A DNA stretch of 64,000 nucleotides. It comes from an uncultured cyanobacterium. GTDB taxonomy: Bacteria > Cyanobacteriota > Cyanobacteriia > Cyanobacteriales > Cyanobacteriaceae. The notes under the pieces were generated by a model. The model was not told the origin of the DNA. It saw nothing but the letters and a program-made list of their open reading frames with translations, and did not search any database. Positions 39,381 to 54,243 of this stretch are shown here, piece by piece. Position numbers and translations under genes: made by a program. The stretch lies in the NCBI GenBank assembly GCA_963749915.1, contig CAVVOP010000022.1:192001-256000 (forward strand), in the 5' to 3' direction. Position 1 is the stretch's first letter; every line of letters starts with the position of its first letter.

Positions 39381-40481
39381 CTATTTACCTACCATAAAAT
39401 TAGCGTAACTTAACTCATTAATACTGTTCCATTTGACGATGGCATCTTTAAAGGCTTTCCAAGGTTCATAAATAGCCTTAAAATTAGCATCCTTAGCTGC
39501 GTTACTTTCATAGATATCTAAAGCTACTTTTTGGGCTTCAGTCATAATATCTTGAGGATAAGCCACCAATTTTGTACCCCCTTGAATAATAGTTGTTAAA
39601 GATTTTTGATTGAGGAAATTATATTGTGCTAGCATATTGAGATTCGCTTCCTTTGCCGCTGAGATAAACATATTTTGGTATTCTGAAGGCAGTTTTTCCC
39701 ACGCCAATTTATTCACTAATACATCTAGAGTCGGTCCGGGTTCCCACCATCCGGGATAATAATAATATTGTGCCGCTTTATTTAAACCCAGTTTTTGATC
39801 ATCATAAGGTCCTACCCATTCTGCCGCATCAATAGCACCCCGATCAAGCGCCAAGAAAATTTCCCCGCCGGGTAACACTTGCACATTTACCCCTAGTTTC
39901 GACATAACTTCACTCCCTAATCCAGGAATGCGCATTTTTAAGCCTTTCAAATCAGCAAGGGATTTTACCTCTTTTTTAAACCATCCCCCCATCTGTGCCC
40001 CTGTATTCCCAGCAGGAAAGTTGATAATATTAAAGTCGGCGTAAACTTTTTGCATGGCTTCTAATCCCCCCCCATGATATAACCATGCGTTTTGTTGTTC
40101 TGCCGTTAAGCCAAAAGGCACGGATGTCCCAAAAGCGAGGGCAGGGTTTTTGCCAATATAATAATAACTTGCCGTGTGTCCACACTCAACGGTGCCATTT
40201 TGTACCGTGTCTAACACTTCTAACCCCGGTACAATTTCCCCTGCGGCATAGGGAGTGACGGTGAATTTTCCGCCACTCATGGCTTTAAGGCGATCGCATA
40301 CTGTTTGTGCACCTCCAAAGATAGTATCTAAAGATTTAGGCCAACTGGTCACCATACGCCATTTGATTTCAGGGAGACTGTTAGCGGTGACGGTGGAATT
40401 ATTTTGACTTTGACAAGAGACTAAAGTGGCAGAAGTTACAGCGCTAATACCAGCACTGGTTAAAAATTGTCTTCTTTGCAT
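39381..40481 (-). CDS. TRAP transporter substrate-binding protein (DctP/TakP-like) with Tat/lipoprotein signal
   Basis: RRQFL Tat motif, lipobox LVSC, QMGGWF, LKMRIPG and AAEWVGPYDD. Confidence 0.9.
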   Translation of the reverse strand: MQRRQFLTSAGISAVTSATLVSCQSQNNSTVTANSLPEIKWRMVTSWPKSLDTIFGGAQTVCDRLKAMSGGKFTVTPYAAGEIVPGLEVLDTVQNGTVECGHTASYYYIGKNPALAFGTSVPFGLTAEQQNAWLYHGGGLEAMQKVYADFNIINFPAGNTGAQMGGWFKKEVKSLADLKGLKMRIPGLGSEVMSKLGVNVQVLPGGEIFLALDRGAIDAAEWVGPYDDQKLGLNKAAQYYYYPGWWEPGPTLDVLVNKLAWEKLPSEYQNMFISAAKEANLNMLAQYNFLNQKSLTTIIQGGTKLVAYPQDIMTEAQKVALDIYESNAAKDANFKAIYEPWKAFKDAIVKWNSINELSYANFMVGK

Positions 40482-40746
40482 TAATTTTCTTTTCTATATA
40501 TGGATAAATTTTTCTGAATTTAACTATTAATTTAACTATTTAATGTTTTTTTAAAAGACGCAAAAAAATAAGAGTTTTTTATTTTTAAGCTTATTTTCTA
40601 CTAAAAATATTCTACAGGAATTAAGGTGTGCAGTGCGTCTTTCTACATAAATTGTTAAATATTTAATTACTTATTTCTAATTACACCTCGTTCACCGATT
40701 TCAAAATTAGTTAGGAAAATTAGGTATAGTTCTGCTTCTCCTAGTA

Positions 40747-40818
40747 AATTAACGCCCAAGCTCACCGGCGGCAATCGAGCGCAGCGGAATTGCCGTCCGG
40801 TGCAGCGCCTTGTTATGT
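40747..40818 (-). other. Integron attC recombination site (72 bp)
   Basis: Minus strand reads ACATAAC-AAGGC-GCTGCACC-GGACGGCAAT..ATTGCCGCC-GGTGAGC-TTGGGC-GTTAATT. The R'', L'', L' and R' boxes and two extrahelical bases are present. It is a GC-rich island overlapping the gene's TAA stop. Confidence 0.92.
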
Positions 40819-42876
40819 GTTTTCTGCATATTTTATTGATAACTCATCTTCAAAATCGAAGGTTGTCAGAGCTTGCTTAATTCTGTCAAATTTGCCCATA
40901 TTGTCAATGTTTGCTTCAATGAAATAAGTGTCATTTATTGGAACTGCTTGTCTTAATCCCTTTTCTCTTGGATTCTTTGTCAAACTAATTCGCTCACCCA
41001 AGTCGGATGTGAAAAATGTTTCAGGTTGAAGCTCAAAAAGCTGTTTAAAGACTTCCACATAAAGTTTCGCTACTTGATTAACTTCAATTTTTTGGTCAAA
41101 GAAAATGGCATACTCCAATTTTTTATGTTTTGGATCGTCAGCTTCAAATATATTTAGTTCTCCATTGTCTCCGTTTGTTTCAATCTCTATTTGAGGGTAT
41201 TCCCATATTTTCAAGAATCGTTCTGAAATCAAGTCAAAGCGTCTTTCAATTTCTGTCTTGTCCCATTTGTCGAGGATTGAAAGGTATTTGTTAATCCATA
41301 ATCGGCTGTCTTTATATCCCGCTCCGTCTAAGTCTCTTTTATGAATAAATGGTTTATTTCCGAGTTTGCTATTATTACCCGATAAAGTCAGATTGCCAAT
41401 GGTGTTCAGATAATTTTCTTTGATAAAGATGTATTCGTCATTGCCCAATTCCATTTTCCATTTTGGGTCAGGATTCTGAGGAAAGATGTGTTCAATTGTA
41501 ATATCTGGATTTCCTTCAATGGCTACTCTCTCTCTATTTTCATAGTTCTCAAGTCTTTCAAGTAGATAAATCCTATTCTTAGATTTAATGTTGTAAACGT
41601 CTTTAACCTTTAGAGCGTCAATAACTTCTGCATTCTTTGGAAAACGCTGAACACCTGACCTTTGTAGTAATGATTTTTGAATTGAATAAAGATAATTGTC
41701 CGACTCTACTTTGTCGTAGAGGCTCATGAATATCTTGTTCAGGGCATTAGTTGGTAAACCAAGAATAAATCTTCTCCATGTAAATGACTGGATTAAGTCA
41801 AGGACTTTTAAAAAAGTGGGTTTATCAATAATTGATGAAACAAAATCATCATATACTTTCATCAGGAAAGGGAAAGCAACATTAATCTCAAGGCGGTTGA
41901 TATACTCCAATTGTAGGCGTATATCTTTGTCAGGCTCATTTTTGGGATTAATCAATTTGTTATAGTGTTTGACCAGTCCTTTTATTCCTGTCAGATTACT
42001 TTCAAGTTCGTCTATTGATGTTGTCGGGTATTTTGTTTTAAACTCAAGATACACTTTTCCCTTATTGGGTATTTTTTTGTTCTCTAAAGTCAGATAGTCA
42101 CGGATATAGTCGGAAACTCGGCTAACATTAAGAGTTTCGTCCTTTGCAAGCTTTTCAATGACTTCCCAATAGTTTTGATAAATGTTGTTTTGGTCTCTGC
42201 GGTTCAGACCCATCAAGATATAATTTCGGATTAAGTCTGCCTGAGACAATTCTAAGCCTGTTGAATTAAGGCTTTCAAAAATTCTTTGAGGATCGTCTTT
42301 TTCTCTGTCAAGTGAAATTTCAACAAACATGAGCTTTGAAAGACCTTTCAAGATGAATTGATAATTTTCTTCAGTAATTCTTCCCTTGAAGTAATTGAAG
42401 TTGTCAACGAGCTTGGAGAAATCAGGGAAATCTTCATTATCGTCACTTCTTAAAAGATATTTCAACGCCTTATCATTATTCTCAGTAGGTCTTAGTTTCA
42501 GCTTTTCTTCTTCTGGGACAAATTTGTTTATTAGGTATGTTTCGCTTATTTCATTTACAAGCTCTTCGTCTTTTAATTCTTTAGCAAGCCTGTGAAGAAC
42601 CAAGTAGATGAGTGTTAGTGTTGTCAATCTTTGTTGACCGTCAATCACCGTCAATTCTTTAATTCTTGAAGCTGTGTAAACATCATCATGAACATAAACT
42701 ATGCTACCGATAAAGTGAGCATTCATTTCGTTATTTGTGCCGACTTCAAGAATGTCGTCAAGTAGCTGTTTACATTGCCCTATTGACCAATCATAATTTC
42801 TTTGGTAAACAGGAATTACGAACTGAGTCTTATTTGATGATAAAAAGTCTTCTACTTTGGTTTCGTTTGCTTTCAA
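40813..42876 (-). CDS. GmrSD-like DUF262 + DUF1524 (HNH) putative modification-dependent restriction endonuclease, cassette-borne
   Basis: IPVYQRNYDW, VIDGQQRLTT and IFESLNSTG (DUF262); TIEHIFPQ..IGNLTL..NSKLGN (DUF1524). The TTG start at 42876 follows AGGA and lies inside the cassette boundary. Confidence 0.88.
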   Translation of the reverse strand: MKANETKVEDFLSSNKTQFVIPVYQRNYDWSIGQCKQLLDDILEVGTNNEMNAHFIGSIVYVHDDVYTASRIKELTVIDGQQRLTTLTLIYLVLHRLAKELKDEELVNEISETYLINKFVPEEEKLKLRPTENNDKALKYLLRSDDNEDFPDFSKLVDNFNYFKGRITEENYQFILKGLSKLMFVEISLDREKDDPQRIFESLNSTGLELSQADLIRNYILMGLNRRDQNNIYQNYWEVIEKLAKDETLNVSRVSDYIRDYLTLENKKIPNKGKVYLEFKTKYPTTSIDELESNLTGIKGLVKHYNKLINPKNEPDKDIRLQLEYINRLEINVAFPFLMKVYDDFVSSIIDKPTFLKVLDLIQSFTWRRFILGLPTNALNKIFMSLYDKVESDNYLYSIQKSLLQRSGVQRFPKNAEVIDALKVKDVYNIKSKNRIYLLERLENYENRERVAIEGNPDITIEHIFPQNPDPKWKMELGNDEYIFIKENYLNTIGNLTLSGNNSKLGNKPFIHKRDLDGAGYKDSRLWINKYLSILDKWDKTEIERRFDLISERFLKIWEYPQIEIETNGDNGELNIFEADDPKHKKLEYAIFFDQKIEVNQVAKLYVEVFKQLFELQPETFFTSDLGERISLTKNPREKGLRQAVPINDTYFIEANIDNMGKFDRIKQALTTFDFEDELSIKYAENT

Positions 42877-42896
42877 TTCTTTAATTCCTGTTTTCG

Positions 42897-42934
42897 ACAC
42901 ATAACTTATAATTGTACCGCAAGTGCAGTATAAC
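42897..42934 (-). other. Cassette 5' core site and attI-like region
   Basis: Minus strand GTTATAC-TGCACTTGCG-GTACAAT-TATAA-G|TTATGTGT. GTTATGTGT is the exact complement of the attC R'' end ACACATAAC. Confidence 0.65.
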
Positions 42935-43176
42935 ACTTTCAGGACTTACGCAAGAGAAAAAAAAGAAATAGCTATAACCCTTGTCAGTAGGTTTAAAGGC
43001 AAGACAGCGATCGTTATAACCTTCCATTGAGATTAGTTAATGGTAAAATTAAGGAGAAAATAGTTTTCTAATCTGATTTTAGAATATCTTTTATTTATTG
43101 TGTTAGACGGCGTTAAAAAGTTCGATGACAAACTATTATCTAATTAATTTTGAAATCGGCGAACGGGGCGTAATCA

Positions 43177-43974
43177 CTAATTATTGATCGCTTCTCTGAG
43201 ACTATGACATAATATTGCTAAATCTTTTAAGCCTTCTTCGGGGCTAGTGTTAGCTAATTTTTTGACAAAGGCACTACCAACAATTACGCCATCTGCCCCC
43301 CATTGTTTCATCTGTATTGCTTGAGAAGGTTCAGAAATGCCAAAACCAACTCCTATGGGTTTATCGGTGACGGTTTTTAACTTACTGATTAAATCTTCAA
43401 CTCGACTTTCTACCTGCAATCGCATCCCAGTAACACCAGTAACACTAACTAAATAGATAAAACCTTGAGATTTTTCAGCAATATGTTGAATTCTATCCAA
43501 GGGTGAAGTTGGTGCAACTAATAAAGTAACCTCTATACCGCATTTTTCGGCAATTTGTAAGAAAGTTTCCGCCTCCTCTAAAGGTAAATCGGGAACAACT
43601 AAACCCTTAACCCCTACATTAGCAATAGTTTTCATGAAATTTTCTACTCCCCGATAAAAAATAGGATTGTAGTAAGTAAATAAAATAATGGGAATAGTAA
43701 TTTCATCTTGAAGGTTTTTGACAATCTCAAGAACATCATTTAAACAGACACCATTTTTTAAAGCACGAGTAGCCGCTGCTTGAATTACAGGGCCATCGGC
43801 AAGAGGATCAGAATAAGGCACACCTAATTCAATCATATCTGCACCATTTTGAGCCAAAATTTTGATAGCTTTAACGGTGGTTTCTAAATCAGGATCTCCC
43901 GCGGTTATAAAAGGAATTAAAGCACATTTATTTTCTTTTTTTAGTTGTTCAAAACACTGAGAAATTGAGGTCAT
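43177..43974 (-). CDS. trpA: Tryptophan synthase alpha subunit
   Basis: [25 protein letters not shown] and GVIVGSA motifs. Confidence 0.97.
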
Positions 43975-46673: not shown

Positions 46674-47477
46674 TCACATTCTCAAATCTTGTTTATTGCC
46701 TAGAGTATAATTATTATTTTGAATTAATTTTTCCAGGCGTTTAACTCTTTTTTCTGGTTGGGGATGACTAACAAAAAAATCGGTGACATTATCTTGTTTA
46801 TTTTCATTAATTAAACGTTGAAAAAAATCGGTCGCCCCTGCTACATGACCATAATATTGATTTAATAAATTTAACCCAAATTCATCGGCTTTAATTTCTT
46901 GGGCTTGAGAATATTGTGCATTAGCTAATATATTGGCGAAATCTGCACCTGATTGAAGAATTTCAACACCACCGAAAATATAATTAATCACTATTTTGAA
47001 TAGCAAAATATTACCTAAACTTCTCAGATGATCCCTATGGGCAAAATGTCCTATTTCATGACCTAAAATCATCACTAACTCATTTTCTGATTTTACTTCT
47101 TTTAATAACCCTTCGTAGATAATAATCATATCCCCCGGAACTGCTAAAGCATTAACAGTATCTTCAGGAATATATAAAACCTGATAATCTCTTTTATAGG
47201 CACTATTTTCTGGTAATAATTCCTCTAATTTCTCGACTATTTCATTTAATTTTACTTCTGTTGATGATGGGTTACTTTTATGTTTAAATTCCTCAGTAAT
47301 TAAAGCTCCTATTTTTTGTTCTACACTCACAGGAATAAAGTTAACTATCTGATTAATTAATACAAATAATCCGAATAAAATAGATATTCCTACTCCTCCA
47401 AATAAGACTAATAATATTAATAATTGTCGATTATTAGTTTCGGGATTTCGATCGCTAATGGGTGAAGAATAAGGCAT
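46674..47477 (-). CDS. M48 family metallopeptidase
   Basis: N-terminal TM helix, NALAVPG, HEIGH, E..AD and SHP..R motifs. Confidence 0.92.
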   Translation of the reverse strand: MPYSSPISDRNPETNNRQLLILLVLFGGVGISILFGLFVLINQIVNFIPVSVEQKIGALITEEFKHKSNPSSTEVKLNEIVEKLEELLPENSAYKRDYQVLYIPEDTVNALAVPGDMIIIYEGLLKEVKSENELVMILGHEIGHFAHRDHLRSLGNILLFKIVINYIFGGVEILQSGADFANILANAQYSQAQEIKADEFGLNLLNQYYGHVAGATDFFQRLINENKQDNVTDFFVSHPQPEKRVKRLEKLIQNNNYTLGNKQDLRM

Positions 47478-47505
47478 TAAATTAATTAATAAAAATTTAT
47501 TTTAC

Positions 47506-48207
47506 TTAGCTTTTAACAGGACGAAAAGGATTGAGAAAATTAAGCAAAGAATACAAATTGCGGGATTGTAACCACAATTTACCATTGCCACTAAAACGAC
47601 AAACTAAACCTTCTCCCCCGAAAATTCCCGTGCGTAAACTACGAAAAGATAAACCACCGATCATTTCCACATTATAATTAAGGGTATCCTCAAAGGCAAC
47701 GATATAACCGGTATCGACAATATAATTTCCCCTAACATCAATTTCAAGAATAGCACCATAGGAACTAAACCAAAAATCGCCGATTCCTGTGGCTTTTAAT
47801 AAGAATAGAGATTCACCACTAAAAAACCCTTTAAAACCTTGAAATTTAGTGTCAATTTCGATAGTAGGACTACAGGCAACAAAACCAGAAGATTGCACCA
47901 TTAAACCACAATTTTTGGTTAAATAATAATGTTTAATATCTCCGGGAACACCGGGAGATATATATAATTCTCCAGAAGTTTTTTTGGCCGTAAATTCGCT
48001 TAAAAATAAAGATTCACCCCCAAACATTCTCCCAATACTCTTACCCAAACCACCACGCATTTTTGACTTCATTTCGATACCAGAATCCATCGCCGCCATA
48101 CCCCCTGCTTCAACGATTACTGTTTGATTTGGTTCAAGCTCCAAAATCAAAAAACCATAGGCAGGATTATGCTCAACACGATATTTTATTGCCGATTTAT
48201 TAAACAT
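47506..48207 (-). CDS. AIM24/TIGR00266 family protein (paralog 3)
   Basis: EAGGM, GGESLF, YIVDTGYIVAF, GGEGLVCRF and QSRN motifs. Confidence 0.9.
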   Translation of the reverse strand: MFNKSAIKYRVEHNPAYGFLILELEPNQTVIVEAGGMAAMDSGIEMKSKMRGGLGKSIGRMFGGESLFLSEFTAKKTSGELYISPGVPGDIKHYYLTKNCGLMVQSSGFVACSPTIEIDTKFQGFKGFFSGESLFLLKATGIGDFWFSSYGAILEIDVRGNYIVDTGYIVAFEDTLNYNVEMIGGLSFRSLRTGIFGGEGLVCRFSGNGKLWLQSRNLYSLLNFLNPFRPVKS

Positions 48208-48253
48208 AATGAATAATGAATAATGGATATTTAATATTTGGTTTTTAAATATT

Positions 48254-48281
48254 TTACTTATTACTTATTACTTATTACTTA
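48254..48281. repeat. Heptamer tandem repeat (TTACTTA)x4
   Basis: Directly visible; a second short heptamer repeat (ATAATGA) lies at about 48206-48225. Confidence 0.85.
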
Positions 48282-48959
48282 TTATCGTGGTGGCAATTGT
48301 GAACCAATTAAACTGCCAAAATGACCTGGATTATGGGTTTGACAAAAGACTTTTCCTCGTCCATAAAAACGACAAACTAAACCTTCTCCTCCTAAAAATG
48401 AGCCTAGCCAACTATTCCCAGCTTTACCAATTTTAAAGTCTAAGGTTTTTTCAAAAGCGACAATATGCCCTGTGTCAACAATATATTCTCCATCGACATC
48501 TATTTCGTAAATACCGCCGAAGGAGCTTAAAATTACGGGGCCATAACCTGTAATACTTAACCAAAAAACGGATTCTCCTGAAAAGAGGGATTTTAAACCC
48601 TGAAATCCCAAGTCTATATCGATGCCAGAGGCACAGGCTAAATAAGAACCTGATTGAACTATTAATTCATTACCTAGCATTTCATAAACGAGGATATCAC
48701 CGATGAAACGAGGTGCTAAAAAAATTTCTCCATTAGGTTGATAACAGCGAAAAACACTCAGAAACAGTGATTCTCCAGCCATCATTCTTTTTAACCCTCC
48801 GAGTACACCCCCTCCCTTTCCTTGCCTTAGGGTGGTGCTAACATTGATAAAATCGCTCACGGCAACCATTGTTCCCGCTTCAGCTATTAATTCTTCTTGG
48901 GCGTTCATGGTTATTTTGGCGATGGCACTATCTGGCTGTTGTAAAATTTGTATATCCAT
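48282..48959 (-). CDS. AIM24/TIGR00266 family protein (paralog 2)
   Basis: AEAGTM, AGESLF, YIVDTGHIVAF and GGEGLVCRF motifs. Confidence 0.9.
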   Translation of the reverse strand: MDIQILQQPDSAIAKITMNAQEELIAEAGTMVAVSDFINVSTTLRQGKGGGVLGGLKRMMAGESLFLSVFRCYQPNGEIFLAPRFIGDILVYEMLGNELIVQSGSYLACASGIDIDLGFQGLKSLFSGESVFWLSITGYGPVILSSFGGIYEIDVDGEYIVDTGHIVAFEKTLDFKIGKAGNSWLGSFLGGEGLVCRFYGRGKVFCQTHNPGHFGSLIGSQLPPR

Positions 48960-48962
48960 AAA

Positions 48963-49625
48963 TTACCGCACCTTGGGACGTAAAAAACCGACTAAACCAC
49001 TGACACTACGAGATTGAATGTAAATAGTGCCTTTACCTTTCAATTTATTGACAAAACCCTCACCGGAAGTGAGAGACGATAACAAGCCACCAGATAAACC
49101 TACACTCATTTTAATATTTGAATCATATCCGACAAGGTGACTACTATCGACAATAAACTCGCCGTTAATTTCTTTATGGGTGATACCGCCATAACTACCA
49201 AATAAAACCCTACCTTTACCGCCAAATTGTAGTTTAAATAAACCCTCTCCAGCAAACCAACTAGCAAAACCGGCCCATTTAACCCCCATTTTAGCACCTC
49301 CTGCATGGGCAATATATGTTCCGGCTTCTAAACAAATGCTTTTACCTTCTAATTTTAGGGCTTCAATATCCCCAATCACCGATTGAGTTAAAACAAGATT
49401 TAATGGACGATTAGTTTTATTGTGAAATACATTAACGAATAAAGATTCTCCGCCGAAAAATTTGCGCATCAAGGCGGGAATTAAACCACCAGAAAATTCT
49501 GTTGTCATCACAATATCAGCGTCCATGCTAACCATAGCACCAGCCTCTGCCGTAATTTTCTCTCTGGGTTCTAAAGTGACAAAAATAGCGGCAAAAGCAG
49601 GACGGTAGCGGATGTTATATTTCAT
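48963..49625 (-). CDS. AIM24/TIGR00266 family protein (paralog 1)
   Basis: AEAGAM, GGESLF, FIVDSSHLV, SGEG and QSRS motifs. Confidence 0.9.
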   Translation of the reverse strand: MKYNIRYRPAFAAIFVTLEPREKITAEAGAMVSMDADIVMTTEFSGGLIPALMRKFFGGESLFVNVFHNKTNRPLNLVLTQSVIGDIEALKLEGKSICLEAGTYIAHAGGAKMGVKWAGFASWFAGEGLFKLQFGGKGRVLFGSYGGITHKEINGEFIVDSSHLVGYDSNIKMSVGLSGGLLSSLTSGEGFVNKLKGKGTIYIQSRSVSGLVGFLRPKVR

Positions 49626-53541: not shown

Positions 53542-54243
53542 ATGAACAAAATCACTTGCTATTTAATAACTCTAACCCCGTTCGTCTTTTCGGCATTCGC
53601 TTGGACGATACAGCCCTTGCCAGCAGAAGCTCAAATGCGAGGGGGGGATTCCCAGCAGTTCTTTGAGGAAGGGAACGAGCAGATGCAACAAAATATTCAA
53701 GACCTAGAACAGGAAAGAGAGAAAAAAGAAGAACCATTAGGAGAAACTCTCAGTATAGGCGAAAAAGACCCTAGTGAACCACAAATAGAAAAAGATCCCA
53801 CTAAACCAGAGGTTGAAGACGTTCCTGATCCCGGTCAAGAAAAACCAGATGTTCAAGGGTCAGAACCAGAAAAAGAGAAAAAAGAAGAACCACTAGAAAA
53901 AACTCCCAATGTAGGCGAAAAAGACCCCACTAAACCAGAGGTTGAAGACGTTCCTGGTCCCGGTCAAGAAAAACCAGATATTCAAGGGTCAGAACCAGAA
54001 AAAGACCCCACTAAACCAGAGGTTGAAGACGTTCCTGGTCCCGATCAAGAAAAAATGGATATTCAAGGGTTGGAACAGGAAAGAGAGAAAAAAGAAGAAA
54101 CATTGGAAAGAACTCTCAATGTAGGCGAAAAAGACCCCAATAAACCAGAGTTTAAAGACGTTCCTGGCCCCGGTGAACAACTGGGACTGGATGAAAACCA
54201 ACCTTTCGCCCCCACCGATGAAGAAGCAGAAATCAAGCTTTAA
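53542..54243 (+). CDS. Secreted acidic Pro/Glu/Lys-rich repeat protein
   Basis: GAGGA RBS, signal ending AEA|Q, and four KDP(T/N)KPE(V/F)(E/K)DVP units. Confidence 0.75.
   Translation: MNKITCYLITLTPFVFSAFAWTIQPLPAEAQMRGGDSQQFFEEGNEQMQQNIQDLEQEREKKEEPLGETLSIGEKDPSEPQIEKDPTKPEVEDVPDPGQEKPDVQGSEPEKEKKEEPLEKTPNVGEKDPTKPEVEDVPGPGQEKPDIQGSEPEKDPTKPEVEDVPGPDQEKMDIQGLEQEREKKEETLERTLNVGEKDPNKPEFKDVPGPGEQLGLDENQPFAPTDEEAEIKL
53791..54177 (+). repeat. Intragenic mosaic tandem repeat
   Basis: AAAGAYCCCA.TAAACCAGAG starts at 53791, 53920, 54001 and 54130 (periods 129, 81 and 129 bp). Confidence 0.88.

Follow-up and report, generated by a model that had tools for sequence, protein, structure and literature searches.

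Integron gene cassettes that stand apart from an integrase gene (intI) have been described under two names, both of which come close to the locus presented here. CALINs, or integron remnants, are cassettes without intI, for which intI loss or rearrangement was proposed as the origin in a survey that, in the part drawn on here, counts cyanobacteria among the integron hosts (Cury et al. 2016, PMC4889954). SALINs consist of one gene and one attC with no intI near and, in the portion of that study considered here, are defined as isolated cassettes without another att site nearby, insertion at secondary sites (attG) being the route proposed (10.1101/2022.09.11.507474). The use of orphaned cassettes by IntI acting in trans has already been suggested as well (PMC4889954, PMC9668308). 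The program of Cury et al., as described in the consulted part of PMC4889954, matches only the attI sites of classes 1-3, and these exactly, so that the attI class described below (type B) would be invisible to it. In the main texts of the literature searched, no description of this attI class or of a genus-wide orphan state was found.

The locus lies in a stretch of 64,000 nucleotides (the window) from an uncultured cyanobacterium. It fits the computational definition of a SALIN and would be called one, but it is an intI-less cyanobacterial integron platform with one defence cassette, and not a lone cassette, because the upstream cassette end coincides with the crossover of an attI conserved among cyanobacteria. 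It thereby differs from SALINs, in that a cognate attI is present at the 5' junction; from CALINs, in that the orphan unit is a retained attI, often found in several copies per genome; and from complete integrons, in that the attI at the first cassette junction has no intI adjoining. We are confident, though short of certainty, that this is an intact GmrSD-family cassette in a cyanobacterial attI without integrase, likely inserted by IntI-catalysed attC x attI recombination.

The cassette and its cargo

The cassette (40753..42904, minus strand, 2152 bp) comprises a 28-nt leader, the gene and the attC up to the G of R', and is intact with exact boundaries. Its attC (72 bp, 40747..40818, minus strand) reads, in the order of that strand, R'' ACATAAC (40818-40812), 5 nt, L'' GCT(G)CACC (40806-40799), GG(A)CGGCAAT ... 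ATTGCCGCC, L' GGTGAGC (40766-40760), 6 nt and R' GTTAATT (40753-40747), with two extrahelical bases, and its bottom strand folds at -17.0 kcal/mol (DNA parameters) with two single-base bulges. This site was the top match of an attC heuristic run genome-wide, and the attC architecture described in the first-pass annotation, for which scoring by a covariance model had been suggested, stood up to it: a model built from 17 other attC sites gives 61 bits (E 9e-12), and the second-best match in the window reaches 13.7 bits, which makes this the sole attC there. The model is home-made, not that of IntegronFinder, and three of its training rows belong to the window site's own attC family; 21 attC-like sites had been harvested, one near-identical to the window attC and three near-duplicates being left out of the alignment. 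It was used in place of earlier strict heuristics, which missed most sites (10/66 loci; control strand 0/66), and the covariation counts on the alignment (A2) are partly circular, since its rows were picked for pairing, and are excluded from the evidence.

The TAA stop of the gene falls within ACACATAAC (R''). At the other end, the G of GTTATGTGT is at 42905, 28 nt away from the TTG at 42876, and the perfect 9-bp complement of R'' noticed there at first sight holds at 9/9 bases, as in a linearised circle, the complementary 9-mer having 19 occurrences in 4.69 Mb, counted over both strands, or 2e-6 per position. Because this complement starts at G 42905, the cassette runs from 40753 to 42904, and these ends, already proposed in the first-pass annotation, are borne out by a copy of the gene that starts at the same G|TT elsewhere: in a metagenome locus (L216), a 90% DNA match begins exactly at the crossover G, the gene being preceded by an attC, where the window has the attI, and followed by another attC. 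A further locus (L215) has nearly the same leader, but a different, shorter attC (55 bp), and the two loci together present the same gene unit with the same boundary in other att contexts. attC sites also stand behind the cargo homologues of L217 and, weakly, L226, and an attC nearly identical to that of the window is found downstream of a complete intI in G110 (L179/L209). Homologues with 96% identity (L212-L214) have other ends, with GTTGGGTG before the gene and CACCCAAC after it, and the gene is therefore packaged with more than one kind of site; the attC model found no match to the long sites of L212, the member of that group searched. Cargo homologues between GTTGGG/GTTAGG-type starts and complementary ends were observed in L212-L214, L225, L228, L247-L249, L253 and L263. 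Judged from these ends, the cargo gene seems to move between two cassette systems.

The nearest cargo proteins, 94-97% identical, are non-cyanobacterial (those with a name are labelled Saprospiraceae, Balneolaceae, Clostridiales or Streptococcus, further ones Bacteroidales and Flavobacterium, and most carry no label), whereas the homologues of six relatives share 61-73% identity, lie at other loci and have no attC match within the 12-14 kb around them; the foreign origin initially claimed for the gene is upheld by this difference. The alignment of homologues (A1) leaves out two homologues from relatives, L031 and L035, which have an in-frame stop at the given coordinates. The codon preference remarked by eye, CTT and GAC against TTA/GAT-rich neighbours, was likewise confirmed by counts against the whole genome: CTT accounts for 23/79 Leu codons (10.8% genome-wide), TTA for 15/79 (50.7%) and GAC for 36/52 Asp codons (22.5%), and the codon adaptation of the cargo is at the 6th percentile of 2034 ORFs, that is, atypical, not extreme. 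Vertical conservation at the locus, which would have spoken against the first reading, was not found. Upstream of the cassette and in the same orientation is the host gene trpA (43177..43974, minus strand; Pfam Trp_syntA), and downstream is dctP (39381..40481, minus strand; Pfam DctP), encoding a TRAP solute-binding protein; in G007 both are adjacent, with a 248-bp gap and no cassette. This adjacency is common only to the window genome and G007, which belongs to another genus, the five same-genus trpA loci examined having other neighbours, and a close empty allele is therefore lacking. The dctP of G007 (L030, G007:C4) is frameshifted near codon 225. Elsewhere in the window, three tandem similar genes, which we take to be TIGR00266-like, stand beside a peptidase-like gene (46674-49625), and a 233-aa protein with repeated EKDPTKPEVEDVP-type units is encoded at 53542-54243.

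The cargo (40813..42876, minus strand) is a 687-aa fused GmrSD-family protein with a TTG start, recognised by Pfam, PADLOC, motifs and fold. The Pfam domains GmrSD_N (residues 8-220, E 1.7e-38) and GmrSD_C/HNH (413-550, E 2.7e-23) are both above the cut-offs, the PADLOC models BREX Orf5, HEC-06 and mREase_IV match, and the family motifs are intact (DGQQR at 79, FESLN at 200, EHIFPQ at 462 and GNLTL at 494). With the GmrSD type IV enzymes, BrxU, DndI and SspE it shares the fusion of DUF262 and DUF1524 and the motifs DGQQR, FxxxN, EHIxPQ and GNLxL, taken for this comparison from the consulted part of PMC4619093, as well as the fold, its predicted structure (pLDDT 76) matching DndI (9jfl, Z 23.9), SspE (7dri, Z 22.3) and BrxU (7p9k, Z 14.6). 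It differs from the solved members and relatives in its 11-19% identity to them and in an extra SeqA-like C-terminal domain, and, unlike its BrxU and DndI relatives, it is stand-alone: BREX, Dnd or Ssp partner genes are absent at the cassette locus, where the neighbours are trpA and dctP. The extra domain, of about 95 aa, is unnamed by Pfam and by the Atlas (best 0.85) and is predicted with a pLDDT of 44 when taken alone; residues 590-682 match two SeqA structures (Z 7.4 and 7.2), the better one being 3fmt (residues 591-682, rmsd ~3 over 91 residues), and since Z is modest this resemblance is a lead. Among the defence cassettes of integrons, restriction systems of types II and IV are reported to be prevalent in the portion of that work considered (10.1101/2024.07.02.601686). 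From its domains and modelled fold, the cargo is likely a modification-sensing defence nuclease, which would act as a nucleotide-dependent HNH enzyme against phage or plasmid DNA and whose SeqA-like tail may read adenine methylation. Its start (42876-42878) has one T more than the ATG of close homologues, and a contig from a public run (X6) is without one base at 42875; the extra T, which yields the TTG, may lower cargo expression.

The attI at the upstream junction

While the boundary itself was rightly drawn from the R'' complement in the first-pass annotation, the reading of a lone cassette missed that the upstream junction is a conserved attI. This site (42905..42938, minus strand) consists of a core-like GTTATAC (42934-42928), 10 nt, an L box GTACAAT (42917-42911), 5 nt and the crossover G (42905). 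When the spacer between trpA and the cassette was compared with 251 genomes of the order, there were repeated matches to 35 nt ending at G|TT, and in the ten loci with this match the sequence past GTT is different in each. Searched with a 24-nt pattern, the GTDB collection has 92 stretches with the motif TGCGGTACAATTATAA|GTT, which reduce to 72 distinct sites; among the 80 matches listed, 79 bear a cyanobacterial title and the remaining one is titled 'uncultured bacterium'. In the window genome, the 19-nt motif has one exact match (reversed control 0), which is the only type-B site there. The consensus consists of a distal GCGGTA repeat followed by GTATTGTACCGCA-NN-TGCGATACAAT-TATAA-GTT, and conservation extends up to GTT and fades within ~10 bases past it, where a variable core-like sequence is found.

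In 71 loci, the motif precedes 49 clusters of different sequences, and the covariance model finds an attC downstream in cassette orientation at 42 of these loci (7 of the 42 also supplied training sites for the model, and another five share a single cassette), the other 29 being without a detectable attC within the DNA examined; over equal lengths, attC matches number 52 downstream, 6 upstream and 0 on the opposite strand. In 26/42 loci, R'' of the first attC is fully complementary to the 7 bases at the motif. A type-B site stands divergently upstream of a full-length intI in G061 (C161) and, as a more diverged copy, in G099 (C12), and faces a truncated intI in G012 (C13), and these three intI form one clade with a support of 0.993 (FastTree, 29 sequences, from the 29/32 loci that gave long enough ones). 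Judged from its position and content, the stretch 42905-42938 is the attI of one IntI clade. In attI1 of class 1 integrons, there are likewise an R box with the G|TT crossover, a 5-nt spacer, an inverted L box and upstream accessory repeats; the type-B sequence is unrelated to it, however, and its accessory box together with its L box makes up an imperfect palindrome, unlike those of attI1. The window copy lacks the distal TGCGGTA repeat and apparently also the promoter that are present in intact copies.

Regarding the transcription of the cassette, a scan for consensus promoters detected none upstream of the gene, a TG-n-TATACT is seen by eye inside the attI (42935-42927), and the public RNA runs shared only 5-7% of words with the window; transcription would come either from trpA read-through or from this extended -10. 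Rfam gave no match at the site, its only match in the window being a tRNA, and a dif-like reading of the junction, made by eye, was dropped once the motif was found facing intI. On the plus strand, GTTAGAC occurs within 43102-43116, with GGCGTTA after it on the opposite strand, an arrangement similar to the accessory box that type-B attI copies have in G004 and G011.

Orphan sites and the missing integrase

In the assembly, of 34 contigs, which could miss an intI, no match passes the TIGR02249 cut-off, and no intI-like sequence is found near the attI. The initial statement that there is no intI is thus correct for intact genes, but two remnants exist in the genome, one internally deleted (C22:156941-157243) and the other a 5' stub (C21:501072-501140). 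The description of the attC as solitary holds in the window, and fails in that an attI partner is present and the genome has more att sites of both kinds: the covariance model finds 7 attC sites at E < 0.02, that of the window included, and four type-A attI sites (GAAAGTTTC...TAATA.ATAG|TT) stand in front of cassettes on C13, C21 (two) and C22. The two longer pieces of the C22 remnant are 86-92% identical to type-A integrases and ~50% to type B, and since the remnants are of this other clade, the enzyme that loaded the cassette would have left no trace.

These other loci were in varied condition. At G000:C22:153900-157243 (L009), the internally deleted intI and a type-A attI are followed by a frameshifted multi-gene cassette, presumably McrBC-like, with a degraded attC near 153870. 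At G000:C21:498390-502200, two type-A attI lie 3 kb apart, both fronting cassettes and the second with the intI 5' stub, and attC matches are found at 499716-499775 and 502110-502193. At G000:C13:917-3854, an orphan type-A attI fronts a 2.9-kb frameshifted methyltransferase-like cassette, whose attC scores 73 bits and whose R'' is complementary to the first core. Further attC sites are those of C8:875834-876850, behind a truncated type-A platform and a GC-rich foreign gene, C21:194930-195015 and C21:611343-611430, the last with almost no cassette left.

The orphan state of the type-B site is far from particular to the window genome. Among the 72 sites, none has a full intI beside the motif in the DNA examined, which reaches at most 4 kb to either side and is shorter in some loci; 18 sites are accompanied, at an almost constant distance, by an intI 5' stub of ~24-42 codons, and one by a 3' fragment. 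In the sample of 251 genomes, with at most 8 intI candidates scored per genome, intI above the family cut-off occurs in 23, so that integrons, called uncommon in cyanobacteria at the outset, are not very rare in this order; the motif (<=1 mismatch) occurs in 21, of which only G061 has intI at E <= 1e-60. None of the 20 genomes of the window's own family has intI above the cut-off, and the search of plasmids for type-B intI gave only 6 short partial matches. In Microcoleus, the genus of G243, 56/79 genomes have the exact motif, in up to 5 copies (reversed control 0). Are these sites still in use, or are they leftovers? They could be fossils, loaded beside a former intI, the differences between strains having arisen by homologous recombination across the flanks and not by current IntI, a serious contender whose chances we put somewhat below even. 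Consistent with it, none of the 79 Microcoleus genomes, mostly drafts, has a full-length intI match and 5 have fragments, many downstream attC are eroded or missing, and the type-A array by the window genome's own intI remnant is decayed. Against it, 9 different first cassettes occur among the 13 loci of one upstream flank cluster, a single 1.2-kb cassette is found behind 6 different upstream flank clusters (some flank clusters may be mobile modules in their own right), and the window cassette is intact, with a codon use that has not ameliorated.

The Microcoleus intI stubs (L071-L144) end near the same codon (~29), beside a HIP1-like GCGATCG pair, and stand behind several different flanks, often what we assume to be small toxin-antitoxin-like genes. 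Their common end points to a single ancestral stub that was copied as a unit, and within the stub a TTGACA-18-TATTAT promoter is seen by eye.

The window site fits the consensus from 42905 to ~42938 and then gives way, where intact copies have the distal repeat, to a short dispersed repeat (GCGTAAGTCC, 42938..42951, minus strand; 15 genome copies) that abuts the end of the attI homology. Contigs from two public metagenome runs, one contig of X1 and two of X3, part from the window at 42937-42939; past the breakpoint, the X1 sequence agrees with the distal repeat, and that of X3 amounts to only 11 nt. One contig of X3 follows the spacer on the trpA side over 42939-43091 before it diverges, the X3 contigs branching at 43091. 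A single X1 contig (depth 4.9) links the flank on the dctP side to an attC that has three indels, which hints at a different last cassette in a near-identical strain. The samples being mixed, all these contigs are hints.

The flanks also contain an inverted repeat, 35 bp on the dctP side (40680..40714, plus strand) and, on the trpA side, 43140..43174 (minus strand), beginning 2 nt past the trpA stop. The attI and the cassette may be a non-autonomous unit bounded by these repeats and moved behind trpA by some transposase, which would be compatible with the loading proposed above and would make transposition the cause of the orphaning; we regard this as rather unlikely. The repeats match at 31/35 positions, the best of 300 shuffles of the two flanks reaching 26/35, and without the bracketed 2.5 kb the gap between trpA and dctP would be ~200 bp, like the 248 bp of G007. 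However, the repeat is found only in the window genome among 301 genomes (up to 3 mismatches), has no copy in viral contigs or plasmids and is absent from the other type-B loci examined; there is no target duplication (by eye) and no transposase at the unit, and the breakpoint near 42938 falls inside the bracket. A third copy in the genome was rejected, the look-alikes being weak and the best one lying inside a coding sequence, presumably with a Fic-like motif. Integron fragments bracketed by inverted repeats, such as the IMU- and MITE-flanked ones, are similar in layout, but the repeats here are only 35 bp long, are single-copy, belong to no known element family and come without a visible target duplication. 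Very improbable, finally, is a chance insertion at an attG, which would leave a true single attC and make the resemblance to attI a coincidence: no intI is near the cassette and SALINs, common as they are (3400 in RefSeq), have been proposed to arise so, but attG sites are described as differing broadly from attI, as far as the consulted part of that study goes (10.1101/2022.09.11.507474), and the conserved match of 35 nt that ends at the crossover largely refutes this reading. The 19-nt motif is matched exactly, occurs once in the genome with none in the reversed control, faces intI elsewhere and precedes those 49 sequence clusters.

The preferred reading, IntI-catalysed loading, would thus proceed as follows. 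A type-B IntI would have recombined the folded bottom-strand attC of a circular cassette with the window attI at G|TT, and intI, its promoter region and the distal attI repeat would have been lost or left behind, with the breakpoint near 42938: they were deleted in place, or else the unit between the inverted repeats arrived behind trpA without them. The cassette would now be frozen unless a matching IntI arrives: to be excised, it would have to undergo attI x attC recombination at an attI devoid of its distal repeat, and this would probably take a matching-clade integrase, which is absent from the assembly even as a remnant. Joints of the cassette ends (empty site or circle) were not seen in the contigs of 4 public runs, and contigs cannot show their absence.

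Implications for cyanobacterial integrons

Taken alone, the cassette is ordinary, single cassettes being known in thousands and restriction genes being common cargo, and the value of the case is in the docking site, although it also documents that a likely defence nuclease with a SeqA-like domain recently crossed phyla to enter a cyanobacterium. How CALINs and SALINs arise is not yet settled, and current tools are blind to attI outside classes 1-3; here, a defined cyanobacterial attI, the matching IntI clade and a genus with 56/79 site-bearing genomes are supplied, and therefore loading in trans can be directly tested against attG insertion and against fossil sites. The type-B attI also suggests a native landing pad for engineering. 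More tentatively, and at odds we would keep well below even, cyanobacteria may run a distributed, integrase-free integron: attI pads, several of them dispersed over each genome, would persist without intI and would still be receiving defence and other cassettes from across phyla, through an integrase that comes transiently from outside or, less likely, through a host recombinase. If this were true, many cyanobacterial 'single attC' calls would be occupied orphan attI sites and not random insertions.
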